The notes under the pieces: model-generated
What the model saw: the letters and a program-made list of their open reading frames with translations, nothing else
Databases searched by the model: none
What the model was told of the DNA's origin: nothing
NCBI GenBank assembly: GCA_036796215.1
Contig: DAIRDJ010000004.1
Span: 2,077 to 66,076, forward strand
Length of the DNA: 64,000 nucleotides
Reading direction: 5' to 3'
From: Geminicoccaceae bacterium
GTDB lineage: Bacteria; Pseudomonadota; Alphaproteobacteria; Geminicoccales; Geminicoccaceae
Translations under genes and position numbers: made by a program
Shown here: positions 1,075 to 28,091 of the stretch, in pieces
How positions within the stretch are numbered: the stretch's first letter is position 1
How the letters are laid out: every line of letters starts with the position of its first letter

Positions 1075-1086
1075 TGAGGTGCCTCC

Positions 1087-11462: not shown

Positions 11463-11491
11463 TTGGTCAAAGCGTCGAGATTTTTTACAAT
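11463..11491 (+). promoter_or_regulatory. Candidate sigma-70-type promoter of the glycan operon (TTGGTC-N17-TACAAT)
   Basis: Near-consensus -35/-10 hexamers with a 17-nt spacer inside the most AT-rich stretch of the window, about 290 nt upstream of the first operon gene. Confidence 0.35.
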
Positions 11492-11776
11492 AAATGATTA
11501 ACAAGAATTGCGCTTGACCGGCCAATTCTAAATCGGCATATCCCGGTGCAACCGATTCGGGGTCCGTGACGCGTGTCATTGTTGAAGATTGTTGGCGGCA
11601 TGGGTTATGAAGAAGACGTTTTCGACAAGACCAAAAGGGCCCTTGTGCTGCGGTTTAGTTAAAAATTACTTGTGAAGAGACAATTCATGGTTGATCAAGG
11701 TAGGTCCATCGGCATGGCCTTGCCGACTGAGCGCCTTTCGATGGCAAGCTGCGGGAACGGTGACGGGCAGGAGCGA

Positions 11777-12985
11777 ATGGACTTGGGTAGCAGCGCTATG
11801 AACTCGGCGGGCGAAAACGCTGGTTGCACGGCAACGGTCGGCAACGCTGTGTCGACCGCCGCAGCGGAACGGGGCGGCAGGCTGCGAGTGGGCGTAGTGG
11901 GTTGCGGCTATTGGGGGGCCAAGCATGTGCGCGTGCTGAGCGGTCTCGCCGACGTTGGCCGGGTCGTCGTCATCGATCGCGACCCGGCGATTCGCGCCGC
12001 CATCACCGCCGCGTTCCCGGCTGTCGAAAGCTGCGCCAGCCTGGAGGGCGCATTGCCACTGGTCGACGCGCTCGTGGTCGCGACGCCCCCGCAGAGCCAT
12101 GCGAATGTTGCCCTGGCCGGCATCGCTGCGGGCAAGCACGTGATGATCGAGAAGCCGATGACAGCGACTCTGGCCGACGCGCGGCGGCTGGTTGCCGCTG
12201 CCGATGCTGCAGGCGTCGTTCTCATGGCGGGGCACACATTCGAGTTCAACCCGGCGGTGCGCGAACTGCGGCGGCGGCTGGATCGGGGCGAGCTTGGTCG
12301 GCCCTACTACATTCATTCGGCGCGGCTCAACCTCGGTCTTTTCCGCTCTGATGTCGACGTCGTCTGGGACCTCGCACCACACGACATCTCGATCATGAAC
12401 TATTTGCTCGGCGCTGTTCCCGATCGGGTCTCGGCCTGGGGCTCGGCGCATGCCTGCCGTGAGGTCAACGACCTCGCCTATATCAAGCTGCATTACGACA
12501 GCCTCGGCGTGACGGGACATGTCCACGTCTCCTGGCTCGATCCCCGGAAGGTGCGGACCGTGACGGTCGTCGGCAGCCAGAAGATGGCCATCTACGACGA
12601 TGTCGCCGACGAGCGCTTGCGCATCTTCGATTGTGGTGTGGAGGCTGGCGATCCGGTTGGTGGTGACGATTCGCTCGTCCCCTACGAGCGTCCGTTCGCC
12701 TATCGGCACGGCGACATCGTCTCGCCCCGCATCTCCGGCGAGGAGCCGCTGATGCTCGAAAATCGCCACTTCGTCGATTGCATCCGTGGCGCTGCCGAGC
12801 CGCTCAGCGACGGCCGCAGCGGCCTTGCCGTGGTCGCGGTCCTCGACGCCGTTGATCGCGCCGTCGCCAGGGGTGAGACCGTCGAGGTCGCGTCGATCCC
12901 GCAACGGCGGCAGCGGCCGTCACCAGACCGAGCGGCATACCGGGCGCCCGCGTCCGTCGTCGCCCAGCAGTATCGAGTCGCCTGA
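11777..12985 (+). CDS. Gfo/Idh/MocA-family NAD-dependent sugar oxidoreductase (WbpB/GnnA-like 3-dehydrogenase candidate)
   Basis: ORF 11672..12985. Rossmann motif LRVGVVGCGYWGAKH and MIEKPM motif. Start set to ATG 11777 (AGGAG 5 nt upstream); the exact start is uncertain. Confidence 0.8.
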   Translation: MDLGSSAMNSAGENAGCTATVGNAVSTAAAERGGRLRVGVVGCGYWGAKHVRVLSGLADVGRVVVIDRDPAIRAAITAAFPAVESCASLEGALPLVDALVVATPPQSHANVALAGIAAGKHVMIEKPMTATLADARRLVAAADAAGVVLMAGHTFEFNPAVRELRRRLDRGELGRPYYIHSARLNLGLFRSDVDVVWDLAPHDISIMNYLLGAVPDRVSAWGSAHACREVNDLAYIKLHYDSLGVTGHVHVSWLDPRKVRTVTVVGSQKMAIYDDVADERLRIFDCGVEAGDPVGGDDSLVPYERPFAYRHGDIVSPRISGEEPLMLENRHFVDCIRGAAEPLSDGRSGLAVVAVLDAVDRAVARGETVEVASIPQRRQRPSPDRAAYRAPASVVAQQYRVA

Positions 12986-13075
12986 GTCCAAGAGGTGCCC
13001 TGAAGCCGGTGATCCGTTCGATCCCCTAGCCGTCTTGCCCGTCCTCAGCCCCGCCCGCCTGGAAGGCTCTCGTTG

Positions 13076-14230
13076 ATGACCGACACCGTTCCCTTTCTCG
13101 ACCTCGCCCGGTCGCACGCCGAGCTGCGTGCCGAGGTCGACGACGCCTGGCACCGGGCGGTCGACAGCTCGGGCTTCATCGGTGGCGCCGCGGTGGAGCG
13201 CTTCGAGACGGATTGGGCCGCCTATTGCGGCACCCGCCATTGCGTCGGCGTCAGCGATGGCACGGCCGCGATCGAGCTCGCACTCGCCGCGCTGCGCATC
13301 GGCCCAGGTGACGAGGTGATCGTGCCGGCAAATACCTTCATCGCGACGGTGGAGGCCGTGACGAAGGTCGCAGCCGTCCCGGTCTTCGCCGATGTCGATC
13401 CCGCGACCCTGTTGCTCGATCCGAACGCAGCGGCAGCGGCAATTGGGCCGCGCACCCGGGCGATCATCGCTGTCCACCTCTATGGTCAGCCTTGCGACAT
13501 GGACGTGCTGCAACCCCTCGCCGATCGCCATGGCCTCGAGCTGATCGAGGACGCGGCGCAGGCGCACGGTGCTACCTGGCGTGGCCGGCGAGCGGGCTCC
13601 CTGGGGCGTGTCGGTTGCTTCAGCTTTTATCCCGGCAAGAATCTGGGGGCTTTCGGCGATGCCGGGGCGGTGACCACCGACGATCCGGCGATCGCCCAGG
13701 AAATCCGCAGCCGCGCCAATCACGGTCGGCCGCTGGGCATCGCCGAGCGCTGCGATGTGCTTGACGGCAACCACCGCCTTGATGCCTTGCAGGCCGCGAT
13801 TTTGGCCGTCAAGCTCCGCCACCTCGATCGCTGGAACGCCGCGCGGGCTGCTGTGATGCAGCGCTACGTGGCCGAGCTCGGCCCGGCGGGTTTGGCCTTC
13901 CCGACCATCCGCGACGAGGCGACCAGCAGCTGCCATCTTGCGATTGCCCTCGTTCCCGACCGCGACGAGGTGCGCCGGCGACTCGCGGCCGCCGGAATCG
14001 CCACTGGCATCCACTACGCCATTCCCTGCCACCGTCAGCCGGCCTGCGCCGAGCTCGTGGCGCGCGCCCGTCTCGCACCAGAGGTGCCGGTGGTCGACGC
14101 GACCGCGGGCCGACTCCTGTCGCTGCCGCTATTCCCGCAGCTCACCGGCGGAGAGGTGCAGCGGGTGATCGATGCGGTCACGGCGATCCTTGCGACGACT
14201 GACCCGGCGATCAGGGACCGGGCTGCATGA
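13076..14230 (+). CDS. DegT/DnrJ/EryC1/StrS-family PLP-dependent sugar aminotransferase
   Basis: ORF 13073..14230. VPFLDL start, GGAAVERFE, DGTAAIELAL, IVPANTFIAT and FSFYPGKNLGAFGDAG motifs. Confidence 0.85.
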   Translation: MTDTVPFLDLARSHAELRAEVDDAWHRAVDSSGFIGGAAVERFETDWAAYCGTRHCVGVSDGTAAIELALAALRIGPGDEVIVPANTFIATVEAVTKVAAVPVFADVDPATLLLDPNAAAAAIGPRTRAIIAVHLYGQPCDMDVLQPLADRHGLELIEDAAQAHGATWRGRRAGSLGRVGCFSFYPGKNLGAFGDAGAVTTDDPAIAQEIRSRANHGRPLGIAERCDVLDGNHRLDALQAAILAVKLRHLDRWNAARAAVMQRYVAELGPAGLAFPTIRDEATSSCHLAIALVPDRDEVRRRLAAAGIATGIHYAIPCHRQPACAELVARARLAPEVPVVDATAGRLLSLPLFPQLTGGEVQRVIDAVTAILATTDPAIRDRAA

Positions 14231-15432
14231 CCAGCGCCGAGCTCACCGGCAGTAGAACAGGCGAGTCGGCCATCGCTCTCGGTTCAGCGGTCGGAAGCAG
14301 CGCTGGCGATGCTCTGCTGTGGCCGTGCGCGGGCGTTGTCCCGAGCCCCGCCGAGCGGGCCTGGGATCGCTTCGTCGAGGCGCATCCGGGCGGTGATGTG
14401 GTGCAGACGGCGGCTTGGGCGCAAAGCAAGCAGGCGACGGGATTTGCCGTGGCGGTTGCGGTGAGCCGTGACGCCAGTGGCGTGATCGCCGGCGGTGGAC
14501 TTGTGATCGCGCGACGGGTGGCGCTGGCCGGTGGGCGCTTGCCGGTGGCGACTGTGGGTTACGTTGCCCGCGGCCCGCTGGTGACGAGCACCGATGCGGC
14601 CACGATCGACCGGGTGCTGGACTCGGTCGAGGCGGCGGCGCGCCGGCTCGGTATCATGCACCTCGTCGTCCAGCCGTCGAGTGACGGTGCCGCGATCGCA
14701 GCGCGACTCGTGCAGCGCGGCTACGACGCTGGTGCCATGGCGGTAGCGCCGACGGCGACACTGGTGATCGATCTGACGCCTGACCTCGACAGCGTCTTTG
14801 CGGGGATGTCCGCGTCGCAGCGGCGCAATCTGCGCAAGGCGAAGAAACTGGGCGTCCGGGTGCGCCGCGCCGCCGACACTGACCTTTCGACCTTCCATGC
14901 CCTGCAGGAAGCGACCGCCGCTCGGCAAGGCTATCAACCGCTGTCCCTCGCGTATCTGGAGGCGCAGTGGCAAGCATTGCGGCCGCTCGGCGCCATCGAG
15001 ATCTTCCTCGTATCCGCGCCCGACGCCCCGGAGCGGCCGATTGCGGGCACGTTGGTGACTGCCTATGCCGGCAGGGTCACGGACAAGATCCCGGGCTGGA
15101 CCGGCGAGGCTCCGGCTTTGCAGCCCAATGTCGCCTGCATCTGGGAGGCAATCACCTGGGCCAAGGCCGGGGGGTTTCGTCACTTCGATCTCGGTGGGCT
15201 GCCAAGGGATGCGGCAGCAGCACTCTTGGCCGGCGACCGCACCAGGGAAGCACATGGCGAGCGCAACCCTGCCGCCTTCAAGGCCCGTTTCGGTGGCAGC
15301 GTCGTGATGTTGCCCGAGGCGCTGCAGCGCACCTTCAACCCGGTTCTGCGCCCGGCCCTCCGCTTCGCCTGGCGCCAGCTGGTCACCAGTCCCCGCCTCA
15401 AGTCATTTGTGAACGGTCTGCGCAATGGTTGA
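14227..15432 (+). CDS. FemAB-family (lipid II:aminoacyl-transferase-like) GNAT-fold protein
   Basis: ORF 14227..15432. VVQTAAWAQSK..., RGPLV, QRRNLRKAKKLGV, YAG...IPGW, WEAITWAKAGGFRHFDLGG follow the FemX/FemAB layout. ATGA overlap with the aminotransferase gene. Confidence 0.65.
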   Translation: MTSAELTGSRTGESAIALGSAVGSSAGDALLWPCAGVVPSPAERAWDRFVEAHPGGDVVQTAAWAQSKQATGFAVAVAVSRDASGVIAGGGLVIARRVALAGGRLPVATVGYVARGPLVTSTDAATIDRVLDSVEAAARRLGIMHLVVQPSSDGAAIAARLVQRGYDAGAMAVAPTATLVIDLTPDLDSVFAGMSASQRRNLRKAKKLGVRVRRAADTDLSTFHALQEATAARQGYQPLSLAYLEAQWQALRPLGAIEIFLVSAPDAPERPIAGTLVTAYAGRVTDKIPGWTGEAPALQPNVACIWEAITWAKAGGFRHFDLGGLPRDAAAALLAGDRTREAHGERNPAAFKARFGGSVVMLPEALQRTFNPVLRPALRFAWRQLVTSPRLKSFVNGLRNG

Positions 15433-16078
15433 TCATCCGCCCGCCGCCACCCTTGGGCGCGGCCGCATCGACGGTCAGCGCCTGTTCGACCTGACCCTCA
15501 CCATCCCGATCCTGATTCTAATCGCACCCGTGCTTCTGCTTGCCGCCATCGCGGTCGGGCTGACCAGTCGCGGGCCCGTGCTGTTTCGCCAGATCCGCGT
15601 TGGCCGGGGCGAACAGCCGTTCTGGATGCTCAAGTTCCGCACGATGTACGTCGATGCCGACCATCGCTTGCAGGAAGAGATGAATCGCCGCGAGCTGATG
15701 GGTGAGGCGGTCGCCGAGAACGGTCTTTACAAGCCCGCACTCGATCCGCGGATCACCCCGGTCGGTCAGGTTCTGCGCAAGAGCAGCATCGACGAGCTGC
15801 CCCAGCTCTTCAATGTTCTGAAGGGCGAGATGTCGCTGGTTGGTCCACGTCCCGCCTTGCCATTCGAGGTCGAGCTGTTCACGCCCGAGGAGCGGCGCCG
15901 CCACGACTGCCGCCCCGGGATCACCGGCGTTTGGCAGGTCTGCGGCCGCAATCGCTTGTCCATGCGCAAGATGCTCGCGCTCGATCTCGTCTACGTCAAC
16001 TACCGCTCGTTCAAGCTCGATCTTTGGGTGCTCCTGAAGACCCCGAAGGCCGTTCTGTTCGAGCGGGCGACGCGCTGA
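15425..16078 (+). CDS. Small monotopic phosphoglycosyl transferase (bacterial sugar transferase family, PglC/WbaP C-domain type)
   Basis: ORF 15425..16078. LFDLTLTIPILILIAPVLLL re-entrant helix, GPVLFRQIRVG, KFRTM, DELPQLFNVLKGEMSLVGPRP. Confidence 0.9.
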   Translation: MVDHPPAATLGRGRIDGQRLFDLTLTIPILILIAPVLLLAAIAVGLTSRGPVLFRQIRVGRGEQPFWMLKFRTMYVDADHRLQEEMNRRELMGEAVAENGLYKPALDPRITPVGQVLRKSSIDELPQLFNVLKGEMSLVGPRPALPFEVELFTPEERRRHDCRPGITGVWQVCGRNRLSMRKMLALDLVYVNYRSFKLDLWVLLKTPKAVLFERATR

Positions 16079-16088
16079 GCGTACGCCG

Positions 16089-17039
16089 GTGACGACACTC
16101 CTGATCGCCACCACGGGCGGCCACCTGGCACAGCTGGTGGAACTTGCCGGACGACTGCCCGGCATCGGCCCCGAGCGGCTCTGGGTGACGTTCGATACGC
16201 CGCAGAGCCGCTCGCTCTTGGCCGGCCAGGCGGTGCGTTTCATCCCGTTCATCCACGAGCGTGACGTGTTGGGCGTCGCCCGCGGGACCGCGATCTGCCG
16301 GCAGCTGTTCAAGGAGTTGCCCATCGAGGCCGTCGTCAGCACCGGCTCGGCTATCGCTTTGGCCTTTCTTCCCTATGCGGCGCTGCGTGGGGTTCCGGCC
16401 CACTACATCGAAAGCTCGGCCAGGGTAGGGGCGCCCTCTCTCACCGGTCGCCTGCTCGCCGGCATGCCCGGCATCCGGCTCTATCGGCAGTACCCGCACG
16501 CCGCGACCGGCCGCTGGGTCTATGGCGGCTCGGTTTTCGATGTGTTCGCCGTCGCCCCCGGTCTCGTCGAGGCCGCCCCGGTGCGCCGCGCAGTCGTTAC
16601 CCTGGGCAGCGTCGAGCAGAGCTTTCGCCGACTGCTCGACCATCTGGTCCCACTCCTGCGCGCGGATGCCGAGGTGCTCTGGCAGACCGGACACACGCCG
16701 ACCGACGGCCTCGGCATCGAGGCGCGCCCGTTCCTGCCGGCAAGCGAGCTCGCCGGTGCCATGGCCACGGCCGACGTCGTCGTGGCTCACGCCGGTTGCG
16801 GCTCCGCTCTTGGAGCGCTCAATGCCGGCAAGCTGCCGATCCTCGTCCCCCGCGATGCCGCTCGAGGCGAGCTTGTGGATGGCCATCAGATCGAGCTCGC
16901 GCGCTGGCTCGCCGGGCGCGGCCTCGCCTTGCACCGGTCGCCCGAGAGCCTGACCTTGGCCGACCTCGAGCACGCGGCTGCAGTGCGGGTGCGGCGCACG
17001 GTCGAACCGCCACCCTTTGCCTTGGCGAGTGCAGCATGA
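16089..17039 (+). CDS. Fused Alg14-like / Alg13-like (GT28 C-terminal, MurG-fold) glycosyltransferase
   Basis: ORF 16089..17039 (GTG). The N-terminal half LLIATTGGHLAQL is Alg14/PssD-like. The C-terminal half VVTLGS...VVAHAGCGSALGALNAGKLPILVPR...GELVDGHQIELA is Glyco_tran_28_C/PssE-like. Confidence 0.75.
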   Translation: MTTLLIATTGGHLAQLVELAGRLPGIGPERLWVTFDTPQSRSLLAGQAVRFIPFIHERDVLGVARGTAICRQLFKELPIEAVVSTGSAIALAFLPYAALRGVPAHYIESSARVGAPSLTGRLLAGMPGIRLYRQYPHAATGRWVYGGSVFDVFAVAPGLVEAAPVRRAVVTLGSVEQSFRRLLDHLVPLLRADAEVLWQTGHTPTDGLGIEARPFLPASELAGAMATADVVVAHAGCGSALGALNAGKLPILVPRDAARGELVDGHQIELARWLAGRGLALHRSPESLTLADLEHAAAVRVRRTVEPPPFALASAA

Positions 17040-18142
17040 CTGCCGTTGCATCTATCCGACTGCGTGATGGACTGTTTGGTGCCGATCCGGATGACACTGC
17101 GCTCATGGCGCTGCGCCCCGATGATCCGCGCTACGCCGCCTTTGCCGAGCGGCACGCTTTTGCTGGCTTGTTCACCTCACCGCCCTGGCTGCGGGCGCTC
17201 GAGGTCGCCTATGGCTTCACCGTTGAGATCGCCACCCTTTGCCGCGCCGGTGCGATCGTGGCCGCCATTCCTCATTGTCGTCTCGATGATCTGCGTGGCC
17301 CGCGGGTCGTTGCACCCCCGTTCTCCGACTACGGCGATCCCCTGGTCGAAAGTCCAATCGATCTCTCGCTGCTGCTCGAGCATCTCGCGGCCTTCGGCTG
17401 CGGTCTGCGCCTGCGCACGCTGCGCAACCCGCTGCCTGCGCAACATGCCACGCTACAGACCACCGGTGAGGCGTTCTGGCACGGTATCGACCTGGATCGC
17501 CCGCTCGAGACGATTTGGGCCGGGCTCGATGCCTCTGCCCGGCAGAACTGCCGCAAGGCGGAGCGCGGCGGTGTGACCGTGCGGATCGGCTGCAGCGAGG
17601 CGGATCTGGACCTGTTCCACCGCATGCACGTGCATGTGCGCAAGACCAAGTACCGGATGCTGGCCCAGCCCGTCGGCCTCTTTACCGCGATTCAGAGCAC
17701 GTTCACCGTACCGCCCGGGAGCAGCGACGACGTCGCGGTGGTGATCGCCGAAGTGGATGGCGAGCCGATCGCCGGGATCATGCTGATGCTCTGGCAGGGA
17801 ACCGCCTATTACAAATTCAATGCATCATTCGATACCCGACTACGGCCCAACGACCTCCTCGCATGGCACGCGATCCGTTACGCCAAAGAACGCGACTGTC
17901 GTGCGTTCGACTTCGGCATTTCCGATACCGACCAGCCCGGTCTCGTTCGCTACAAGCGCAAATTCGCGACCGAGGAGAAGCTGATGCGGCAGCTGATGCT
18001 GCCGTCGCCACGAGCCACCGCACCGCATGAGCAAATGGCTGGCCGGACCCTCGGCCGGCTGACCGAGCTCCTGACCCGTCCCGAAGTACCCGATGCCGTC
18101 ACAAGGGAGGCTGGCGATGCCCTCTACCGCTATTTCGCCTGA
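17036..18142 (+). CDS. BioF2-like / CelD-type GNAT-fold acyl(aminoacyl)transferase
   Basis: Real part of ORF 16796..18142 from MTAVASIR (ATG 17036, ATGA overlap). ARQNCRKAERGGV, GTAYYKFNASFD, CRAFDFGISD, LVRYKRKFA resemble Acetyltransf_6-type proteins. Confidence 0.6.
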   Translation: MTAVASIRLRDGLFGADPDDTALMALRPDDPRYAAFAERHAFAGLFTSPPWLRALEVAYGFTVEIATLCRAGAIVAAIPHCRLDDLRGPRVVAPPFSDYGDPLVESPIDLSLLLEHLAAFGCGLRLRTLRNPLPAQHATLQTTGEAFWHGIDLDRPLETIWAGLDASARQNCRKAERGGVTVRIGCSEADLDLFHRMHVHVRKTKYRMLAQPVGLFTAIQSTFTVPPGSSDDVAVVIAEVDGEPIAGIMLMLWQGTAYYKFNASFDTRLRPNDLLAWHAIRYAKERDCRAFDFGISDTDQPGLVRYKRKFATEEKLMRQLMLPSPRATAPHEQMAGRTLGRLTELLTRPEVPDAVTREAGDALYRYFA

Positions 18143-20887: not shown

Positions 20888-20904
20888 CGTGAAGGAGACA
20901 GGTG

Positions 20905-21774: not shown

Positions 21775-21787
21775 CGCCGGTGCGTGG

Positions 21788-23470
21788 ATGGACTCGATGA
21801 CGACGTCGGTGGGCAAGGTGGCCGATGCGACCGCGGCCGAGTCGGCAGGGGCGCGACACCGCGCCGATGTGAGCGAGCTCGCCGGCCACTCGCGGACCGT
21901 CCTCGTCTGGACAGTCGCCAGCCGGGCCGCGGGTTTCTTGCGCGCCGCGCTTCTCGCCGCCGTCCTCGGCCCGACCTTCTTCGGCAATCTCGTGCAGACG
22001 AGCCTGGTCCTGCCCCACCTCGTCTGCCAGCTCCTGATGGCGTCGCTAGTCCCGGCGATCTTGACCCCGCACTTGGTGCGCCTGCTCGACGCCGGCGAGC
22101 GGGAGCAGGCGCACCGCCTGACCTGCAGCTTCTTCGGTCTTGCCTGCGCCTGCTTCGGCGTCGCCGCCCTGCTGACGGTGCTCGCCGCTCCGCTGATCCT
22201 GCCGGTCTTGACCGTCGCGGTCGAGGACCCGGCCATCCGCATGGCGCAGCACGATCTCGGCTGGTACCTCATTCTCTGCATCGCGCCGCAGATCCCGCTG
22301 TTCGGCGTCGTCTCGATCGGTATCGCGGTCCAGCAGGCGCAACGCCGGTTCGCGCTCGCGACTGCTGCCCCCGCCTTCGAAAGTCTCGGCTTCGGCCTGA
22401 TCCTCGCCCTGAGCGCCTTGGTCTTCGGCATCGGTAGCGATATCGACGAGATCAGCCACGCCCAGGTCCTCTTCATCGGCATCGGTGCCACGCTCGCCGT
22501 CACCTGCCATGCCGCCGTGCAGTGGTGGGGGGCTTTTCGTCTCGGCGTGACGCTCCGGCCGCGGGGCGGCTGGTTCGCCCCGGAGCTCCGCGCGGTGCTG
22601 CGCATGGCGCTGCCGTCGAGTGGCAACGCCATCCTGGTCTCGCTCGGCTGGGTCGCGATGCTGGTCGTCGCCGGCGGCATCCCCGGCGGTGCGGTTGCCT
22701 TCCAGATCGCCTACAACCTCTTCAACCTGCCGATAGCACTTTGCGCCCGGCCGATCGCAACGGCCCAGCTGCCGCTGATGGCGAGCCGCATCGCTGGAGG
22801 TAGCAGTGCTACCGCCCTCTTTCACGATGCGCTGCGGTTGACCTTCTTCGTCGCTTTGCCGGCCGCCCTCGTCTTTCTCCTCATGGCCGACCAGCTGGCA
22901 CTGCTGATCAGCGTCGGCGGCATGCGCACCGAGGCCGGCCTCGGCCTCGTTACGATAGCCATTGCGGGGCTCGGCCTCGCCCTGCTCGGCGAAGGCGTCA
23001 TGGTGGTGTCGAGTTCCGCCGCCTACGCCCGCCACGACGCCGCTTCGCCCTTTCGCGCGATGGCGCTGCAGACCGCGATCCTCGGCTGCGGCCTCGTGCC
23101 GATCGCACTGCTCACCGATGGCGCCGAGCGGCTCGGCGCCATCGGTCTCGTCTTCTCGGCTGCTACGCTGGTCGGCGGTCTCTACCTCTACCGTGCCCAG
23201 CTCGCAGCCGGCCGCCCGAAGGTCGACTGGTCGCTCGCCCGCGACCTCGGCTGCGCCATCGTCGCCGTCGGCGTCGGCGTCGCAATGGTCGACGTCTGGC
23301 CCGGCCCGGCGGGTATCGTTCCGGCGCTCGTCAGCTTGACCGTTGCAGCCCTGCTCTATCTCGCGATCCAATGGCTCGCGAGCTCGCGGGAGCTCGCCCT
23401 CGTGCTGCGAACCGTTCGCCCTTCTGGAGCTGTCGGCGGTACGGCCACGCATGGCGAGGTTCGCGGCTGA
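21788..23470 (+). CDS. MurJ/MviN-type MOP-superfamily lipid-linked glycan flippase
   Basis: ORF 21731..23470. N-terminal SRAAGFLRAALLAAVLG... resembles the MurJ SRxxGFxRd motif. About 14 predicted TM segments. Confidence 0.7.
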   Translation: MDSMTTSVGKVADATAAESAGARHRADVSELAGHSRTVLVWTVASRAAGFLRAALLAAVLGPTFFGNLVQTSLVLPHLVCQLLMASLVPAILTPHLVRLLDAGEREQAHRLTCSFFGLACACFGVAALLTVLAAPLILPVLTVAVEDPAIRMAQHDLGWYLILCIAPQIPLFGVVSIGIAVQQAQRRFALATAAPAFESLGFGLILALSALVFGIGSDIDEISHAQVLFIGIGATLAVTCHAAVQWWGAFRLGVTLRPRGGWFAPELRAVLRMALPSSGNAILVSLGWVAMLVVAGGIPGGAVAFQIAYNLFNLPIALCARPIATAQLPLMASRIAGGSSATALFHDALRLTFFVALPAALVFLLMADQLALLISVGGMRTEAGLGLVTIAIAGLGLALLGEGVMVVSSSAAYARHDAASPFRAMALQTAILGCGLVPIALLTDGAERLGAIGLVFSAATLVGGLYLYRAQLAAGRPKVDWSLARDLGCAIVAVGVGVAMVDVWPGPAGIVPALVSLTVAALLYLAIQWLASSRELALVLRTVRPSGAVGGTATHGEVRG

Positions 23471-24939
23471 TGGCGAGCCTCGGCGTCACCGCCTTGCCTT
23501 CAGGTCACAGCGACCGGCGTCGCCCGGTTTGGCCGCTCCTTCTCGGCCTCGTCGGCGTCAGCCTCGCCGCCGCTCTCGGCGGTGTCGCCACCGGCCTCGG
23601 CGAACTGAAGGGTGCGGCGGTTGCCATCGCCGTGCCGATCGGTCTCGCGATCTACGCAGCACCACAGCTCGGCCCCTATCTCTGGCTCCTCGCGAGCCCG
23701 CTGACCGTCGGTCTCGCCCGCGGCGATATCCTGCCCTTCGTCCGCCCCAACGAAGCCTTGCTGCTGCTGATCCTCGGCGCCGTCGCGTTTCGCGTCGTCC
23801 CGCTCGTGCTCGCCGGCCGCTGGCGTCTGCCGCCACTCGGCCGCTTCGATCTCGCCCTCGGCCTGTTGGTGGTCACGGGCTCGCTCCTGCCCGTGTGCAT
23901 CCGCCTCGGCCGCGATCTGCCGCTCGCCACGGACGACGTGCTCTACAGCCTCGTGTTGATCAAATACCTGCTCCTCTACACGCTGTTTCGCCTGACCATC
24001 ACCACCACGGCGCAGGTGCGCGTCTGCCTCGTGTTGGCCCTCGCCGCGGCCGTGCCGGTGGCCCTCGTTGCGCTCTTGCAGGTTAACGGCCTGTTCGGCG
24101 TGCCGGAGTTCCTCGCGCGGTACTACGACTCGCCGTTCTCCGGCGGGCAAGGCGCTCCGGTCACCTCCCGCGGCACCTCGACCGTGGCGAGCTCATTCGG
24201 TGTCGCCAACCTCATGATCCACACCGCGAGCATCGTCTCCGGATGGATGATCGTCTACGGCCGGCCGCGTGGCGTGCTGCTCTGTATGGGAGTGGTCTGC
24301 TTGTTCGGCGTGCTCGCCGCCGGCCAGTTCTCCGGTATCATCGGCGTCGCCATCGCGATCACCATCACCGGTTGGCTGATCGGCCGGCTGCGCCAGGTCA
24401 TGCTCTGGGCACTGCCGGCCCTGGCCCTCGGTGCAGCACTGCTCTGGCCGGTTCTCGAACAACGGCTGAGCGGGTTTGAGCGGGATTCCGGTCTGCCGCA
24501 GAGCTGGGAAGGTCGCATCGACAATATGGAACGCTTCATTCTTCCGGAGCTCGCCTCGGGCGACAACTGGTTTCTCGGCGTCCGCCCCGCACCTCGGGTC
24601 GCCGCACCCGAATGGTGGCGCGAGTACGTCTATATCGAAAGCGGCTATGTTTGGCTGTTGTGGATCGGCGGCGTGCCGTTCCTCGTGGCTTTCCTCGCTT
24701 TTGCCTGGGTCGGGATCACCGAGTTCGGCCGGGTCTGCCGAACACGCCAGGATGCCGTCGGCATCGCCGCACTCGCGGCGACCACCGGTCTTACCATAGT
24801 GACCGTCCTGATGCTGTTCGATCCCCACCTCACGATGCGCGGCGGCGCCGATCTGATGTTCCCGCTCATGGCCCTCGCCCTGCTGGGGCCGGCCGCGCGC
24901 CCCGATCCCGTCGTACCAGCCGAGCGAGCTCGACCATGA
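23470..24939 (+). CDS. O-antigen ligase/Wzy-like polytopic membrane protein (candidate polymerase)
   Basis: Real part of ORF 23371..24939 from MASLGVTAL (TGATG overlap at 23470). Many TM segments with one larger loop (FERDSGLPQSWEGRIDNMERF...). Confidence 0.6.
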   Translation: MASLGVTALPSGHSDRRRPVWPLLLGLVGVSLAAALGGVATGLGELKGAAVAIAVPIGLAIYAAPQLGPYLWLLASPLTVGLARGDILPFVRPNEALLLLILGAVAFRVVPLVLAGRWRLPPLGRFDLALGLLVVTGSLLPVCIRLGRDLPLATDDVLYSLVLIKYLLLYTLFRLTITTTAQVRVCLVLALAAAVPVALVALLQVNGLFGVPEFLARYYDSPFSGGQGAPVTSRGTSTVASSFGVANLMIHTASIVSGWMIVYGRPRGVLLCMGVVCLFGVLAAGQFSGIIGVAIAITITGWLIGRLRQVMLWALPALALGAALLWPVLEQRLSGFERDSGLPQSWEGRIDNMERFILPELASGDNWFLGVRPAPRVAAPEWWREYVYIESGYVWLLWIGGVPFLVAFLAFAWVGITEFGRVCRTRQDAVGIAALAATTGLTIVTVLMLFDPHLTMRGGADLMFPLMALALLGPAARPDPVVPAERARP

Positions 24940-27900
24940 CCCGCAGCCCATCTTCACATACCCGACGCATCGCCTGGCTCGCCGGCCTGACCCTGCTCGC
25001 CGCCTGCAACTACGAGAGCGGCGAGCGGGCGCTCGAACGGGGCGACGAGATGCGCGCCGCCGAGATTTGGCAGCCGCTCGCCAGGCGCGGCGACATGCGC
25101 GCGGCCCTGGCCCTGGCACGCCTCGACACCGGCGCAGATGCCACGCCGGCGGAGCTCGACGAGGCCGAGCGCGAACTCCGGCGGGTGCTCCGCCTCGGCG
25201 AGGGCTGGCAACAGGGCTGGGCCTACTACGAGCTCGCCCGTGTGGAACGCCAGCGCGACCGGCCGGTCGAAGCCGCGGCCTATTACGAGGAAGCGCTGGA
25301 GCGCGGTGTCGAATGGGCCGCCTACGACCTCGGCCAACTCTTGGCCGAGGGCAGGGGGGTCCAACCGGACCCGGCACGCGCCTTGCGTCTCACCGAGCAG
25401 GCCGCCGACGAAGGCGTGGCACCGGCGATGACCGCGATGGGCACGTTCTACGTCCGGGGCATCGGCGTCGCCGCCGATCCCGAAGCCGCTAGGCGCTGGT
25501 ACGAGAAAGCCGCCGCGGCCGGCGATCCCTGGGGCCAATTCGCCCTCGGCCAATTGCTGCTGGCCGCCGATCGCGAAGGCGGCGAGCTCGACCCCGCCGG
25601 TGCTGCGGCAGCGTTCGAGGCGGCTGTCGCCGAGGGCATCGTCCAGGCGAAACTACCGCTCGCCGACCTCCTCCTGCCATTCGACCCGGCTACGGCCGAG
25701 GTCGTTCCCGCGGATCCGAACCGGGCCCTCGCCCTCTATACCGAGGCGGCCGCGGCCGGCGATGCCTGGGCGAGCTATCGCCTCGCCGAAATCTACGCCT
25801 CCGGCCGGCTCGCCCCGGCCGACCCCGAGCGCGCGGCCAAGCATTACGCCAAAGCGGCGGAAGGCGGCATCGGCCTGGCGGCGAAGGCCTTGGGCCGGCT
25901 CTACGAGCTCGGCCAGGGTGTGCCGGTCGATCCGGCCCGCGCCGCTGACCTCTACACCACTGCGGCAGCCGAGGGCGATATCGACGCCGTGCTGGGCCTC
26001 ATTCGGCTCGCCCGCCTGCCCGATCCCCCGCCGATCGACACAACCACGCTTCTGGCCGAACTGGAGGTGGCGCTCGACCTGCGCCCCGCCGATGCCGGTC
26101 AGGTTCTGGGCGACCTCTATCTCGCGGGTGATCTCGTCCCGACCGACCCCGTGTTGGCCACAGGCTACCTGGAGACAGCGCTCGCCGCCGGCAACACGAC
26201 GGTCCGGCCGCGCCTGGCACGGCTCTATCTCGATCCTACGCTTGAGCTCGGTGGTGCCGGCCGCGACGCCGAGGCGGGCCGGAGACTCTTGGAGGACGCC
26301 GCTGGCGAGGGTGACCCCAATGCCGCCTTCGAGCTCGCCCGCCTGCTCGAGGCGCCACCCGCGGCCGATCCGGCGCGCGCTCGCAGCCTCTATACCGCGG
26401 CTGCCGAAGCCGGCGTCGCGGCCGCGCAAAAAGCGCTTGCCGACCAGTTCCGTGACGGGATCGGTGGCCCCCAGGATCGCGACCTCGCCGTCCGGTGGTA
26501 TGAGGTCGCGGCGGCCGGCGGTGATCCCTGGGCCGCTTTCGAACTCGCCCGCCTGCTCGAAACGGGCGCTGGCGTGGCTGCCGATCCGGCTCGTGCCCGC
26601 AGCCTCTACGCTAGGGCGGCGGCTGCACAAATCGCCCCGGCCCAGCAGGCGCTGGCCGGCATGCTGCGCGACGGTCGAGGTGGTCCCCCCGACATCGTGG
26701 CGGCGGGGCGCTGGTATCGGGCCGCGGCAGATGCCGGTGAGCCTTGGGCCGCCTACGAGCTGGCACAGCTCTATGCCGCGGACACGGCGGGCGTTCTGCC
26801 GGCCGATCGCAGCCGCACCGAGACCATGACCATCCTCTACCGCTCCGCTGCCAATGCTGGCATCCCGCAGGCTCAGTTGGCTCTAGGCGATCTCTTGGCC
26901 GATCCCGCGAACCCGGCCGCCGATCCGGCGGCGGCAGCCGCCTGGTACGAGCGGGCGATGGCTTCCGGCGAACCCATAGCGGCCTTCCGCCTTGCGCGGT
27001 TGCCATCACCCGGCACCACATCCGCGAACCTCGAGCCGAGGCGGCGCGCATTGCTCGAGGAGGCGGTCGCCGCCGGCGTGCCGGGTGCAGCTACAGAGCT
27101 CGCGCGGCTGCTGGAATCGGACGAGGACGGGGCCCCCGATCCGGCTCGGGCTCTGGAGCTGTACCAAAGTGCCGCTGCCGAGGGTGATCCCTGGGCGGCA
27201 CTTGCCTTGGGTCGCCACTACCAGGGGGACGCGCGGACGCCGACCCGGGGATCGCGGGATCCGGATCTGGCAATTGTCTGGCTCGAGCAGGCCGCCGCGG
27301 CCGACATTGCCGAAGCGAAGCGCCGCCTCGGTGACCTCTATGCCGATTCGGCGAGCGACCACTTTGCCCCCGAGAGCGCCGTGCGCTGGTACGAAGCTGC
27401 AGCTGCGGACGGTGACGAGTGGGCCATGATAGAGCTTGCCAAGCTCAGGATGGATGGCCCGGCCGGCATCGCCGATCCGGCGGCTGCCGCCCGGGCGCTC
27501 GAGCCACTCGCCGAGGCCGGGCTGCCGCAGGCGCAGAAGCTGCTGGGCGACCTCTATGATCGCGGCCAGGGGGTGCGGGCCGATCCAGAAACCGCTGTCG
27601 CCTGGCACCGCGCGGCGGCGCAAGGGGGTGATCCCTGGGCCGCGTTCGCGATGGCAGAACGCCATTCGCGGGGCCGCGACGTGCCACGCGATCCGGATCG
27701 GGCCCGCGAGTACTATGTCATCGCGGCGGCGGCCGGTCTGGCGCCGGCACAGCGCTGGCTCGCCGACGCGGAGATGATGCGGGCCATGGCCAGCCGCGGG
27801 GCGGAGGCGGAGGCTGCGCGCGGTAGTGCGGTGACCTGGTATCAAGCGGCGGCCGAGGGCGGGGATGCCCGGGCGCTCTATCGTCTTGGCATTCTGCATC

Positions 27901-28091
27901 TCGACGGCCAGGGTGTGCCGCGCAATCCCGAACGGGCGGTCGAGCTCTTGCAGCGCGCCGCGGCCGCCGGCTCGCCCGACGCCGGGGTGGCCCTCGGCGA
28001 TCTCTACACCATGGGCGGGGCGGTCGATCGCGACAGCGAGCGCGCGGCCTACTGGTACCAGGCCGCGGCCGAGGCGCGCGCCGGCGACTGA
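24936..28091 (+). CDS. Giant Sel1-like repeat (SLR/TPR-like) lipoprotein
   Basis: Real part of ORF 24612..28091 from MTRSPSSHTRR (ATGA overlap at 24936). Lipobox LTLLAAC. About 26 units of the A-x-x-W/LY-x-x-AA-x-x-G...LG-x-LY signature, counted by eye. Confidence 0.85.
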   Translation: MTRSPSSHTRRIAWLAGLTLLAACNYESGERALERGDEMRAAEIWQPLARRGDMRAALALARLDTGADATPAELDEAERELRRVLRLGEGWQQGWAYYELARVERQRDRPVEAAAYYEEALERGVEWAAYDLGQLLAEGRGVQPDPARALRLTEQAADEGVAPAMTAMGTFYVRGIGVAADPEAARRWYEKAAAAGDPWGQFALGQLLLAADREGGELDPAGAAAAFEAAVAEGIVQAKLPLADLLLPFDPATAEVVPADPNRALALYTEAAAAGDAWASYRLAEIYASGRLAPADPERAAKHYAKAAEGGIGLAAKALGRLYELGQGVPVDPARAADLYTTAAAEGDIDAVLGLIRLARLPDPPPIDTTTLLAELEVALDLRPADAGQVLGDLYLAGDLVPTDPVLATGYLETALAAGNTTVRPRLARLYLDPTLELGGAGRDAEAGRRLLEDAAGEGDPNAAFELARLLEAPPAADPARARSLYTAAAEAGVAAAQKALADQFRDGIGGPQDRDLAVRWYEVAAAGGDPWAAFELARLLETGAGVAADPARARSLYARAAAAQIAPAQQALAGMLRDGRGGPPDIVAAGRWYRAAADAGEPWAAYELAQLYAADTAGVLPADRSRTETMTILYRSAANAGIPQAQLALGDLLADPANPAADPAAAAAWYERAMASGEPIAAFRLARLPSPGTTSANLEPRRRALLEEAVAAGVPGAATELARLLESDEDGAPDPARALELYQSAAAEGDPWAALALGRHYQGDARTPTRGSRDPDLAIVWLEQAAAADIAEAKRRLGDLYADSASDHFAPESAVRWYEAAAADGDEWAMIELAKLRMDGPAGIADPAAAARALEPLAEAGLPQAQKLLGDLYDRGQGVRADPETAVAWHRAAAQGGDPWAAFAMAERHSRGRDVPRDPDRAREYYVIAAAAGLAPAQRWLADAEMMRAMASRGAEAEAARGSAVTWYQAAAEGGDARALYRLGILHLDGQGVPRNPERAVELLQRAAAAGSPDAGVALGDLYTMGGAVDRDSERAAYWYQAAAEARAGD

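Follow-up and report, generated by a model that had tools for sequence, protein, structure and literature searches.

Gene content of the locus

The locus lies in a 64,000-nt stretch of a Geminicoccaceae contig, probably of soil origin, referred to here as the window, and consists of an uninterrupted run of genes on the + strand, from 11714 or 11777 to 28091, together with the region upstream. Its features are as follows.

11450..11713, +, AT-rich intergenic region upstream of the operon, containing the sole promoter-like site close to where the operon starts
11714..12985, +, Gfo/Idh/MocA oxidoreductase, predicted nucleotide-sugar 3-dehydrogenase (Pfam GFO_IDH_MocA)
13076..14230, +, DegT-family PLP aminotransferase, predicted sugar 3-aminotransferase (Pfam DegT, 365 bits)
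14227..15432, +, Fem1, FemABX-family double-GNAT transferase (Pfam FemAB 72.8, Acetyltransf_6 57.6 bits)
15425..16078, +, small monotopic phosphoglycosyl transferase (PGT), initiating enzyme (Pfam Bac_transf, 208.8 bits)
16089..17039, +, GT28-type glycosyltransferase (GT), fused PssD-like and PssE-like, or Alg14/Alg13-like, parts (Pfam Glyco_tran_28_C, 39.1 bits)
17036..18142, +, Fem2, Acetyltransf_6/FemAB-family transferase (Pfam Acetyltransf_6 63.3, FemAB 31.5 bits)
18117..19427, +, secreted right-handed beta-helix protein, predicted periplasmic glycan-processing enzyme (Pfam Beta_helix, 39 bits)
19424..20158, +, SAM methyltransferase MT1 (Pfam Methyltransf_25/11/12)
20180..20887, +, SAM methyltransferase MT2, tandem paralogue (Pfam Methyltransf_25)
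20905..21774, +, two-TM "mini-PCP" candidate (topology, weak profile match)
21797..23470, +, MurJ/MVF-family flippase paralogue (Pfam MurJ 90.5 bits, cut-off 27.4)
23470..24939, +, Wzy/WaaL-fold membrane protein, predicted repeat-unit polymerase (AF2 model and Foldseek)
24936..28091, +, Sel1-repeat lipoprotein of 1051 aa (Pfam Sel1, 283 bits in 11 stretches)

A first-pass annotation of this DNA had counted fifteen genes; 13 are found, and gene calling done independently on identical contigs from metagenomes also gives 13. Its statement that all genes run in one direction is borne out, and the six overlaps that it quoted are correct (ATGA at 14227, 17036, 19424 and 24936, TGATG at 23470, and 8 nt at 15425). 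The fem2 and beta-helix genes share 26 nt, and the remaining junctions measure 10-22 nt, with a single one of 90 nt. The promoter-like site, TGGTCA-16-TACAAT at 11464-11491, is not significant alone, because a scan over 18 kb returned 2 such sites where 1.4 are expected; an Rfam search of 10700-11900 gave zero family matches. Pfam calls were judged against the gathering score and NCBIfam calls against the cut-off of each model. The gene identities first proposed hold for the 11 of 13 proteins that exceed the Pfam gathering score, but the short PCP and the Wzy are without a Pfam hit, and every equivalog-level NCBIfam score of the operon proteins lies below its cut-off.

The gfo, degT, small PGT, MurJ-like and Pfam-less Wzy-like genes co-occur in about 50 loci, which span Alphaproteobacteria, Actinomycetota and other phyla; of the 54 loci with flanking sequence sufficient to judge, almost all have this five-gene core. 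The family has culturable carriers, among them Benzoatithermus flavus, Inquilinus limosus SA128 and Roseomonas sp. KE2513.

Proteins with predicted roles in making the amino sugar and its substituent

The first two genes encode the Gfo/Idh/MocA and DegT pair that had been proposed (87 and 365 bits in Pfam), and gfo stands beside degT in 54 related loci. The Gfo protein, which starts at 11714 according to the metagenome gene caller or alternatively at 11777, also matches Pfam C-terminal domains, has as top NCBIfam match UDP-GlcNAc 3-dehydrogenase (172 bits, cut-off 450), and finds 3c1a, 3q2k and 7bvj among PDB sequences. The closest solved relatives of the DegT protein are 2oga (320 bits), which we take to be DesV, 7b0d (304), QdtB 3frk (276) and WbpE 3nyu (253), with perosamine synthase and ArnB at 196 bits or less. 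DesV, QdtB and WbpE are C3-acting aminotransferases. By sequence, the operon enzyme is closest to solved sugar aminotransferases of this kind.

Both transferases described at first as FemAB-type and Acetyltransf_6-type proteins of GNAT fold pass the Pfam thresholds. Fem1, with zero predicted TM segments, matches S. aureus FemX 6snr (E 1.3e-16) and aligns full-length with Weissella FemX (1e-5), and Fem2 is distant from solved Fem proteins (E 0.039). The top NCBIfam match of both is TIGR03019 (35.5 bits, and 66.1 bits for Fem2; cut-off 260). As many as three Fem-like genes, belonging to two subfamilies, occur in related loci: a core subfamily represented by Fem2, present once in the majority of related loci with any Fem-like gene and with a conserved Y-K-R-K-[FY]-A motif, and an accessory subfamily represented by Fem1, with 0-2 copies per locus and a C-terminal [FY]-K-x-x-[FWY]-[GA] motif. 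A C-terminal [FY]-K motif is common to both. Across the 54 loci, Fem-like genes alone occur in 25, a Hexapep acetyltransferase alone in 23, both in 2 and neither in 4 (Fisher p = 7e-9, a value confounded by phylogeny, because 15/15 alphaproteobacterial loci carry Fem-like genes). Since Fem-like proteins and the WbpD-type hexapeptide acetyltransferase are nearly exclusive of each other, this distribution suggests that Fem-like enzymes acylate the 3-amino group of the sugar, replacing the usual sugar acetyltransferase.

MT1 and MT2 are paralogous SAM methyltransferases, as had been claimed, both with Methyltransf_25 and 65.6% identical to each other. The closest solved proteins to MT2 are the archaeal protein-lysine N-methyltransferases 5fa8 and 5jwj (E 9e-8), followed by DOT1, and MT2 homologues in two related loci (L006 and L094) match DOT1 weakly.

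Proteins with predicted roles in assembly and periplasmic handling

The 217-aa PGT has one hydrophobic helix at 29-47 and matches WbaP/WcaJ-type models over their catalytic C-terminal part only, in keeping with the small monotopic enzyme originally named. The GT had been described as an Alg14-Alg13 fusion; Pfam Alg14 is unmatched, but Glyco_tran_28_C is found, and the sub-threshold NCBIfam matches are PssD in the N-terminal half (45.3 bits, residues 4-125), PssE in the C-terminal half (57.9 bits, residues 169-282) and WelK (90.7 bits). Its PDB matches, to MurG 7d1i and ALG13, are weak. The gene is present in 7/15 alphaproteobacterial relatives and missing from 8/15, and its product is by sequence an ordinary PssDE/WelK-type EPS enzyme.

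The MurJ/MviN-type flippase call is upheld at the level of the Pfam family; against TIGR01695, the model of bona fide MurJ, the protein scores 93 bits where 235 are required, which makes it a MurJ paralogue. In almost every related locus, its gene adjoins that of the Wzy-like protein. The Wzy-like protein, earlier termed Wzy/O-antigen-ligase-like, has zero Pfam or NCBIfam matches, but its confident AF2 model (pLDDT 85.5, pTM 0.86) resembles WaaL best (Foldseek, 7tpg_B, E 1.8e-4, prob 1.00) and FtsW next, with TM-scores of 0.45-0.53. That the best match is a ligase, at such TM-scores, speaks against a polymerase role. The family comprises 322 cluster representatives at E<=1e-30, one homologue bears the UniRef name "O-antigen ligase domain-containing", and fusions of the types MurJ-Wzy, MurJ-Wzy-Wzz-kinase (PCP-kinase), MurJ-Wzy-PGT and Wzy-kinase are found. 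The protein is predicted to polymerise repeat units.

The mini-PCP candidate has a Pro/Ala-rich N-terminus, a TM segment at 111-129, a periplasmic domain of ~130 aa and a second TM segment at 264-282, a topology like that of a PCP. It has no Pfam or NCBIfam hit apart from a faint C-terminal match to TIGR03007, aligns weakly with the N-terminal Wzz region of the PCP-kinases of related clusters (hhalign probability 66.6%, E 5e-5), and gives a poor AF2 model (pLDDT 46.5). Its gene and the Sel1 gene co-occur in most loci having either.

Two further proteins were correctly recognised at first, namely the secreted beta-helix protein and the Sel1-repeat lipoprotein. The former has an N-terminal hydrophobic segment at 19-43 and no sequence relative among solved structures, and the related clusters in L006, L009, L011, L012 and L094 also come with beta-helix genes. 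The latter has the lipobox LAAC; among eight homologues examined, the lipobox is present in six by pattern and in one more by eye, it is followed by C-[NSD]-[YF]-x-x-[GA], and a beta-barrel extension is absent in all with a complete C-terminus. The Sel1 gene occurs only in a subset of the alphaproteobacterial loci, which, except L011, is without the Wzz-kinase PCP.

Export

A full Wzz/tyrosine-kinase PCP (Wzz+AAA_31, 730-760 aa) is part of the cluster in 7/15 alphaproteobacterial relatives, and in three such loci it lies directly downstream of the Wzy-like gene. The reported lack of a PCP tyrosine kinase is therefore true of the locus but lineage-specific, and the mini-PCP candidate and Sel1 lipoprotein would, judging from this distribution, be a lineage-specific substitute for it. 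The reported absence of Wza/OPX and of an ABC exporter is likewise confirmed: a Pfam search of the locus finds no OPX, ABC exporter or tyrosine kinase, and inspection by eye of the remainder of the window showed no OPX-like ORF. Neither the window nor any of the nine related proteobacterial neighbourhoods inspected contains an OPX or a porin, and outer-membrane crossing or anchoring of the polymer is not encoded within the locus. To our knowledge, O-antigen loci never encode an OPX. The commonest class of OPX is a short protein that requires a separate porin (PMC9603273). For both reasons a missing cluster OPX is not anomalous in itself, and an OPX or porin may be encoded elsewhere in the genome.

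Comparison with known systems

Adjacent Gfo and DegT genes are shared with the WbpB/WbpE/WbpD route of Pseudomonas (WlbA-C in Bordetella) and with GnnA/GnnB, which lead to 2,3-diamino-2,3-dideoxy sugars, and the likeness extends to a DegT near WbpE and a Gfo nearest the UDP-GlcNAc 3-dehydrogenase model. Related actinobacterial loci have the full set of Hexapep acetyltransferase and 2-epimerase of such routes, whereas the present locus lacks the WbpD-type hexapeptide acetyltransferase, WbpA dehydrogenase and 2-epimerase and has Fem/Acetyltransf_6 proteins instead of the acetyltransferase. The GT is comparable with PssD/PssE, Cps14F/G and WelK/GelK of sphingan/succinoglycan-type systems, although all these matches are sub-threshold, the best, to WelK, having a cut-off of 400. 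WelK itself is a beta-1,4-glucuronosyltransferase.

A Sel1 lipoprotein at the operon end and a periplasmic beta-helix enzyme recall AlgK of the alginate system and the TPR scaffolds of synthase-dependent systems, and AlgK is the top NCBIfam match of the Sel1 protein (113.8 bits, cut-off 700); however, the protein is more than twice as long as the 448-position AlgK model, and the locus is Wzy-type rather than synthase-type and has no gene for an AlgE-like porin. The holdfast locus of Caulobacter crescentus encodes an OPX and a PCP of its own (HfsD, HfsA/B), along with a deacetylase, other glycosyltransferases and a Wzx instead of a MurJ-type flippase, and we know of no Gfo/DegT pair described for its pathway. 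By description, it shares with the present locus an alphaproteobacterial pathway of Wzx/Wzy type and a cytoplasmic FemX-like double-GNAT protein, HfsK, which is discussed only as a putative N-acyltransferase (PMC5362036). XrtA/PEP-CTERM EPS loci share a FemAB-related protein, a Bac_transf PGT, a chain-length determinant and a Wzy-like protein (PMC3684757), but the TIGR03019 scores of the Fem proteins are far below the cut-off, and no exosortase, PEP-CTERM protein or Wza is found in the locus by Pfam or was seen by eye elsewhere in the window. Streptomyces utr polymers contain GlcNAc3NAcA/ManNAc3NAcA made by a Gfo/DegT-type pair, and one of them, a diamino-sugar homopolymer, parallels those related loci in which the PGT is the only glycosyltransferase; these polymers are predicted by the authors to be built on wall teichoic acid by TarS/TarM-like glycosyltransferases, and the description of the utr clusters includes no PGT, flippase, Wzy or Fem-like enzyme (PMC13274773).

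Proposed pathway and alternatives

The locus probably, but by no means certainly, encodes a Wzx/Wzy-type lipid-carrier pathway for a surface glycan keyed on 2-acetamido-3-amino-2,3-dideoxy-hexose. Gfo would oxidise UDP-GlcNAc at C3, and transamination by DegT would yield UDP-GlcNAc3N. Fem2, in place of the WbpD-type acetyltransferase of related loci, would acylate the new 3-amino group, and Fem1 would lengthen or further alter this substituent, possibly with an aminoacyl-tRNA as donor by analogy with FemX. The two lysine-N-methyltransferase-like enzymes would methylate the substituent or the sugar. The small PGT would transfer the sugar-1-phosphate to undecaprenyl phosphate, the PssDE/WelK-type GT would attach a second sugar, and the MurJ-family paralogue would flip the lipid-linked unit, which the WaaL/Wzy-fold protein would polymerise with assistance from the mini-PCP; the beta-helix enzyme and Sel1 lipoprotein would handle the polymer in the periplasm. 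From families and neighbourhoods we infer all substrates, the order of steps, the polymerising activity, and what the mini-PCP, Sel1 and beta-helix proteins do. On the same footing, the core of the first-pass proposal stands, namely an undecaprenyl-PP-linked amino-sugar unit that is N-acylated or aminoacylated, probably methylated, flipped and polymerised; its lipid-II-like framing is not supported.

That framing over-read the GT, which is of the PssD/PssE-WelK EPS type, and the flippase, which falls below the MurJ equivalog cut-off. A peptide-bearing second wall glycan made alongside peptidoglycan by enzymes of MurG, Fem and MurJ type, possibly peptide-cross-linked, would agree with the Fem- and MurJ-family proteins above Pfam thresholds and with the weak MurG match, but the GT is absent in 8/15 alphaproteobacterial relatives, initiation is by a PGT and not MraY, and Pfam finds no Mur ligase, transpeptidase or MraY-type gene in the locus, so that this is highly improbable. 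The chemistry could instead be more ordinary, with the Fem-like proteins as acyl-CoA-dependent N-acetyl or short-acyl transferases that replace WbpD in making an O- or N-methylated polymer of GlcNAc3NAc type, without aminoacyl-tRNA; this is rather unlikely but deserves consideration. GNAT-superfamily enzymes are mostly acyl-CoA users, Fem2 is only distantly related to Fem proteins of known structure, the Gram-negative Fem-like protein studied best, HfsK, is itself discussed only as a putative N-acyltransferase (PMC5362036), and the Hexapep replacement pattern suits a like-for-like swap. However, a single N-acetylation would hardly explain the presence of as many as three Fem-like genes from two subfamilies, the match of Fem1 to FemX is full-length, the [FY]-K motif is kept in both subfamilies, and the methyltransferases resemble amine (lysine) N-methyltransferases.

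The destination of the polymer bears on two other readings. An arrangement without OPX, kinase or ABC genes, as found in the locus and by eye elsewhere in the window, is typical of O-antigen loci. A polymer made by Wzy and the short, kinase-less PCP candidate could be joined to lipid A-core by a WaaL whose gene lies elsewhere and reach the surface via Lpt, which would account for the missing OPX, tyrosine kinase and ABC exporter; 2,3-diamino sugars do occur in O-antigens of Pseudomonas and Bordetella (PMC10622841). This reading is possible but doubtful, because the Wzz and BY-kinase PCP of 7/15 alphaproteobacterial relatives is a capsule/EPS hallmark, the module is common in Actinomycetota, in general considered to be without LPS, and neither a dedicated Sel1 lipoprotein of 1051 aa nor a secreted enzyme of beta-helix type would be usual in such a cluster. 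It is improbable that the WaaL-fold protein is instead a ligase or O-oligosaccharyltransferase that moves a one- or two-sugar unit en bloc to a protein or other acceptor, like PglL. WaaL is the best structural match, a homologue carries the O-antigen ligase label, a small PglC-like PGT with amino-sugar genes recalls pgl loci, and in one related cluster the PGT is the sole glycosyltransferase (the L012 locus is cut at its upstream end). On the other hand, Wzy-like proteins are fused to or clustered with Wzz/BY-kinase co-polymerases, the partners of polymerases, each locus shows a single gene of WaaL/Wzy fold, there are secreted beta-helix proteins of the sort usual in polymer processing, and the next structural match, FtsW, is a polymerase.

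The locus had not been recognised as a described EPS, CPS or O-antigen locus, and likewise no characterised orthologous cluster was found; the gene-cluster family seems to be unstudied. The gene combination is no oddity, given the recurrence of its core, and the locus belongs to a widespread cross-phylum gene-cluster family.

Gene organization of the locus

On the basis of codon-position G+C and ORF structure, the region between 11.7 and 28.1 kb of the window, which has a G+C content of 64-72%, contains 13 plus-strand genes and no opposite-strand gene among them. The same 13 genes were called independently on identical copies in Logan metagenome contigs, and the fifteen genes counted by the first-pass annotation are therefore reduced to 13.

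Genes of the glycan locus (window coordinates, strand, product)
11714/11777-12985, plus strand: gfo, Gfo-family dehydrogenase
13076-14230, plus strand: degT, DegT aminotransferase
14227-15432, plus strand: fem1, FemAB protein
15425-16078, plus strand: pgt, Bac_transf phosphoglycosyl transferase (PGT)
16089-17039, plus strand: gt28, glycosyltransferase with PssD-like N-half and PssE-like C-half
17036-18142, plus strand: fem2, FemAB protein
18093/18117-19427, plus strand: secreted beta-helix protein, predicted enzyme
19424-20158, plus strand: mt1, methyltransferase MT1
20180-20887, plus strand: mt2, methyltransferase MT2
20905-21774, plus strand: mini-PCP candidate, 289 aa, two transmembrane segments (TMs)
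21788/21797-23470, plus strand: murJ-like, Pfam MurJ
23470-24939, plus strand: wzy-like, 489-aa membrane protein
24936-28091, plus strand: sel1, 1051-aa Sel1 protein

The junctions quoted in that annotation are correct: ATGA at 14227, 17036, 19424 and 24936, TGATG at 23470, and an 8-nt overlap at 15425. The other intergenic gaps are 10-22 nt, together with one of 90 nt between gfo and degT. Upstream lie divergently oriented ABC permease genes followed by an AT-rich spacer of ~400 nt, which holds a single promoter-like site (11464-11491) in a promoter/terminator scan that performed at chance level; an Rfam search upstream of the operon found no riboswitch or other known RNA. Downstream, an IclR-family regulator gene on the same strand (28192-29040, 100 nt past the Sel1 gene) is followed by ABC/NMT1 transporter genes.

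GC3 is 0.73-0.86 in the 13 genes (11777-28091; lowest in mt1 and fem2) and 0.84-0.91 in flanking and housekeeping genes such as thrC, an M16 peptidase gene and gshB (46384-56926); this lower GC3 is a weak indication, compatible with acquisition by horizontal transfer. A known plasmid-borne cluster was considered and rejected, since whole-locus megablast against plasmids returned only a 104-nt match of the PGT gene, to Azospirillum. Elsewhere in the window, positions 1-4120 appear by eye to encode a sugar ABC-binding protein, two SIS proteins (one of them a MurQ-like etherase) and a BadF/BadG-type kinase, which look like an amino-sugar/MurNAc recycling cluster, and the translations of 49290-51916, likewise judged by eye, resemble a FecR-like exported protein followed by a CHASE2-domain nucleotide cyclase-like protein.

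Enzymes predicted for precursor synthesis, assembly and flipping

Pfam gathering scores are passed by 11 of the 13 gene calls, and none of the locus proteins reaches an equivalog cut-off at the NCBIfam level. The best NCBIfam match of Gfo is UDP-GlcNAc 3-dehydrogenase (NF040723; 172.1 bits, below the cut-off of 450), and its PDB matches are 3c1a, 3q2k and 7bvj, of which we take the latter two to be WlbA and GnnA, respectively. The closest relatives of DegT are 2oga (presumably DesV), 7b0d, QdtB and WbpE at 253-320 bits, with perosamine synthase and ArnB at 196 bits or less. DesV, QdtB and WbpE act at C3 of the sugar. The adjacency of gfo and degT, together with the proximity of DegT to these C3-specific enzymes, identifies a precursor pair of the GnnA/GnnB and WbpB/WbpE type, and it is in this pair that the locus resembles those systems.

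The initiating PGT scores 208.8 bits with Bac_transf (cut-off 27). The glycosyltransferase shares the two-half architecture of the PssD/PssE-WelK enzymes, with scores that all lie below the NCBIfam cut-offs (WelK 90.7 against 400, PssE 57.9 against 120 and PssD 45.3 against 110 bits). The flippase is a member of the MOP superfamily, of the MVF type rather than the PST type, and passes Pfam MurJ (90.5 bits, cut-off 27.4). Its score with the MurJ equivalog TIGR01695 is 93.1 bits against a cut-off of 235.55, on which ground a housekeeping role as the lipid II flippase is rejected and the protein is regarded as a MurJ-family paralogue. The parallel with the late lipid II pathway drawn in the first-pass annotation thus dissolves mostly into a coincidence of superfamily names, because initiation falls to a PGT and not to MraY, the glycosyltransferase is of the EPS type and dispensable in relatives, and the flippase is a paralogue. 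MT1 and MT2 are 65.6% identical; among solved proteins they lie closest to archaeal protein-lysine N-methyltransferases and DOT1 (E 9e-8). No solved sequence relative of the beta-helix protein was found.

Fem-like enzymes and their probable acceptor

The FemAB and MurJ calls, on which the first-pass annotation had staked its reading, both pass Pfam: against a FemAB cut-off of 24 bits, Fem1 scores 72.8 and Fem2 31.5 bits, and the flippase, as noted, 90.5 bits. Fem1 aligns over the full double-GNAT length with Weissella FemX (residues 11-296) and also matches FemX of S. aureus (E 1.3e-16); the solved Fem proteins are only distant relatives of Fem2. The motif [FY]-K-x-x-[FWY]-[GA] is conserved at the C-terminus in both subfamilies, and we take its [FY]-K to correspond to the catalytic Phe304-Lys305 of Weissella FemX. 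This motif is the one feature that hints at aminoacyl-tRNA as the donor, which is conceivable but rather doubtful. The best NCBIfam match of both proteins is the XrtA/PEP-CTERM FemAB family (TIGR03019), at 35.5 bits for Fem1 and 66.1 bits for Fem2 with a cut-off of 260.35; on these scores, membership of an XrtA/PEP-CTERM system is rejected. Most Fem-bearing loci carry one copy of Fem2, the core subfamily, and zero to two of Fem1, and the presence of several paralogues per locus recalls, by analogy, the sequential logic of FemX, FemA and FemB.

The distribution of the Fem-like enzymes bears on their acceptor. Of the 54 non-redundant loci that contain gfo, degT and wzy, 25 have only Fem-like enzymes, 23 only a hexapeptide acetyltransferase of the WbpD type, 2 both and 4 neither (Fisher p = 7e-9, a value that overstates independence as the sequences are related); the Fem type accounts for every one of the 15 alphaproteobacterial loci. 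This near-exclusivity points to a Fem-like enzyme that takes over acylation of the 3-amino group. Because the fem genes sit where sister loci have the WbpD-type N-acetyltransferase, a specific acceptor can be predicted, namely the 3-amino group of a GlcNAc3N-type sugar, and this prediction is testable in vitro.

Fem-like precedents are HfsK of the Caulobacter holdfast (PMC5362036) and the 'FemAB' proteins in PEP-CTERM loci of floc formers (PMC3684757). The C-terminal extension of HfsK is needed for membrane association, and its Arg residues have been proposed to bind c-di-GMP (PMC5362036). Past its conserved FK motif, Fem1 ends in an Arg-rich tail of ~45 aa (…LRPALRFAWRQLVTSPRLKSFVNGLRNG), which shows a putative likeness to that extension.

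Wzy-like protein, its fusions and the mini-PCP

The 489-aa Wzy-like protein has no Pfam or NCBIfam match, and its more than 148 homologues are likewise without a Pfam domain. A confident model built with 35 homologues (pLDDT 85.5, pTM 0.86) has a single significant PDB match, the O-antigen ligase WaaL (7tpg_B; E 1.8e-4, probability 1.00, TM 0.45/0.53), followed by FtsW. The description of this protein as Wzy/O-antigen-ligase-like therefore holds at the level of the fold, although no HMM matches it and the structure does not decide between polymerase and ligase. Fusion and adjacency to Wzz/kinase proteins favour a polymerase.

A profile search at E<=1e-30 gave 322 representatives of 50%-identity clusters, and about 24 of the best 150 have a long architecture (1000-1600 aa, with the Wzy-like part at ~550-1050). 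Pfam analysis of eight representatives, six of them long, revealed MurJ-Wzy, MurJ-Wzy-Wzz-AAA_31, MurJ-Wzy-Bac_transf and Wzy-AAA_31 arrangements, and one protein of 770 aa (P0149) had no match. The fusion proteins (P0152, P0161, P0164, P0154, P0185, P0206 and P0140), all relatives of the product of 23470-24939, measure ~1030-1270 aa for MurJ-Wzy, 1614 aa when Wzz and an AAA_31 kinase are added, 1355 aa when a Bac_transf PGT is added and 698 aa for Wzy-kinase, taken as called, so that gene-calling artefacts are possible. These fusions of MurJ-Wzy with Wzz-kinase and PGT support the idea that flippase, polymerase, co-polymerase and PGT may operate as one machine, and such repeated fusions of Pfam-less proteins of the Wzy/WaaL fold provide direct genomic evidence for a flippase-polymerase-copolymerase complex.

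The mini-PCP has a Pro/Ala-rich N-terminus and TMs at residues 111-129 and 264-282 around a loop of ~130 aa. Neither it nor 19 homologues (62-96% identical) contain a Pfam domain, and its AF2 model (pLDDT 46.5) is too poor for a fold search. With the Wzz-kinase PCPs of related clusters it shows a weak hhalign match (66.6%, E 5e-5) to their first TM and N-terminal periplasmic part, and the label 'short PCP' is thus reasonable but unproven.

Sel1 lipoprotein and the question of export

The Sel1 protein, with its lipobox and Sel1 repeats, recalls AlgK, but its score with the AlgK equivalog (NF038194) is 113.8 bits, short of the cut-off of 700, and a porin gene is absent from the locus. The lipobox, with C-[NSD]-[YF]-x-x-[GA] after it, was recognized by pattern in six of eight homologues and by eye in a seventh, and one sequence is cut at its start; those with a complete C-terminus have Sel1-type repeats to the end and no beta-barrel. 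In the 15 alphaproteobacterial loci, a Wzz+BY-kinase PCP of 730-760 aa is found in 7, the mini-PCP in 6, the Sel1 lipoprotein in 6 and both of the latter in 5, a coverage cut-off having been applied. One locus (L085) has the mini-PCP without Sel1, and another (L011) combines Sel1, a weaker mini-PCP match and the kinase PCP. This alternation of Wzz/BY-kinase with mini-PCP plus Sel1, together with the lack of an OPX gene beside any of the diderm clusters examined, offers a lead on how polymers made by Wzy exit the periplasm or are retained there.

Pfam searches of the 13 locus proteins gave no match to OPX (Poly_export), porin, ABC exporter or AAA_31 kinase, and no OPX-like ORF was seen, mostly by eye, in the remaining 47 kb of the window. 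The annotations of seven proteobacterial relatives show no Poly_export domain up to 10 kb from the cluster, and none was found in the scanned downstream genes of two further loci (L019 and L020). The first-pass annotation, which saw no Wza/OPX, kinase or ABC exporter, is thus borne out for the locus, and the absence of OPX extends across the diderm branch examined. The OPX translocon and BY-kinase of a group 1-like CPS/EPS locus are absent here, a kinase PCP being present in other lineages only. A missing OPX by itself does not demonstrate a new export route. O-antigen loci do without OPX genes, since WaaL and Lpt perform the export. The commonest OPX class is short (median 256 aa) and needs a separate beta-barrel (PMC9603273). 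The monoderm Actinomycetota would need no outer-membrane step.

Related loci

Species-representative genomes yielded 80 loci when scanned. The nearest come from two MAGs, one of Geminicoccaceae (76% identity) and one of Rhodospirillales (75%); on both contigs the genes for beta-helix, mt1, mt2, mini-PCP, murJ, wzy and sel1 are retained with identities of 60-76%, the end genes being cut by the contig. Other carriers are Alphaproteobacteria (Geminicoccus, Benzoatithermus flavus, Azospirillaceae, Roseomonas, Inquilinus limosus and Methylobacterium nigriterrae), Actinomycetota (Nocardioides, Pseudonocardia, Streptomyces, Actinoplanes, Acidimicrobiia and Thermoleophilia) and a few Chloroflexota, Dormibacterota and Acidobacteriota. 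Carriers that can be cultured include Benzoatithermus flavus SYSU G07066, Inquilinus limosus SA128, Roseomonas sp. KE2513 and Methylobacterium nigriterrae. When the 13 proteins of the window served as tblastn queries, a core of five (Gfo, DegT, the small PGT, the MurJ-like and the Wzy-like protein) occurred together in nearly every locus with enough flank, and annotated neighbourhoods show the same gene order with extra accessory genes.

The nine-gene cluster of the alphaproteobacterial MAG MFD02360.bin.1.49 (L093 1490-13777, identical with L016) has a PGT but no other glycosyltransferase, and its repeat unit is therefore implied to be a single modified amino sugar. Such a repeat has a counterpart in Streptomyces antibioticus, whose beta-1,4-GlcNAc3NAcA homopolymer is assembled by another route (PMC13274773); for that reason the Streptomyces utr/TUA cluster was rejected as an equivalent. 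Literature searches on FemAB/Acetyltransf_6 proteins in connection with polysaccharide, Wzy, O-antigen and aminoacyl-tRNA, and on GlcNAc3N gene clusters, found no equivalent gene combination.

Several neighbouring genes were observed in these loci. L012 looks like L093 in lacking a non-PGT glycosyltransferase, but its contig ends just upstream of gfo. In Benzoatithermus flavus (L006 1-67) a GGDEF-EAL gene, for c-di-GMP turnover, is found no more than ~3 kb from the cluster, in a Geminicoccus MAG (L019 14207-16357) such a gene immediately follows the cluster, and in L094 a guanylate-cyclase/TPR gene comes after it. In two loci the Sel1-type gene is followed by a gene of the phage-integrase family, 23 nt further on in L012 (14153-16314), which also has a DDE-transposase-associated gene, and ~470 nt further on in L020 (14039-15001); these integrase genes may reflect mobility of the cluster or may just be xerC.

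A model for the pathway

The locus fairly probably directs a Wzx/Wzy-type glycan made from a Gfo/DegT-derived 3-amino sugar, by a scheme in which the family assignments are those observed and for which we infer the substrates and the order of steps. Gfo would oxidize UDP-GlcNAc at C3 and DegT would transaminate the product, after which Fem2 may acylate the 3-amine, Fem1 may extend or modify the added group, and MT1 and MT2 may methylate an amine or hydroxyl. The small PGT would transfer the sugar phosphate onto undecaprenyl phosphate, the PssDE/WelK-type glycosyltransferase would add a second sugar, and the MurJ-family paralogue would flip the unit for polymerization by the Wzy-like protein with the mini-PCP. 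The beta-helix enzyme and the Sel1 lipoprotein would then act on the polymer in the periplasm.

A bolder version, which we consider unlikely, is that the Fem enzymes use aminoacyl-tRNA to extend the 3-amino group of the lipid-linked sugar with a short side chain, either an amino acid or a peptide, that the lysine-N-methyltransferase-like pair methylates the amine, and that the polymer is handled by the mini-PCP and the giant Sel1 lipoprotein. If true, the product would be a cationic or zwitterionic peptide-decorated polysaccharide, its module common to Actinomycetota and Alphaproteobacteria; mini-PCP and Sel1 lipoprotein would replace the canonical PCP-kinase/OPX machinery in the diderm lineage, and a glycan made by Wzy would then be exported or anchored by a novel route. 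Nothing seen in the locus requires a new principle. The locus is real, coherent, widespread and unstudied. As a clean genetic setting, this locus family is a handle on the donor and acceptor of the Fem-like enzymes of Gram-negative polysaccharide loci and on the role of such enzymes in polysaccharide synthesis.
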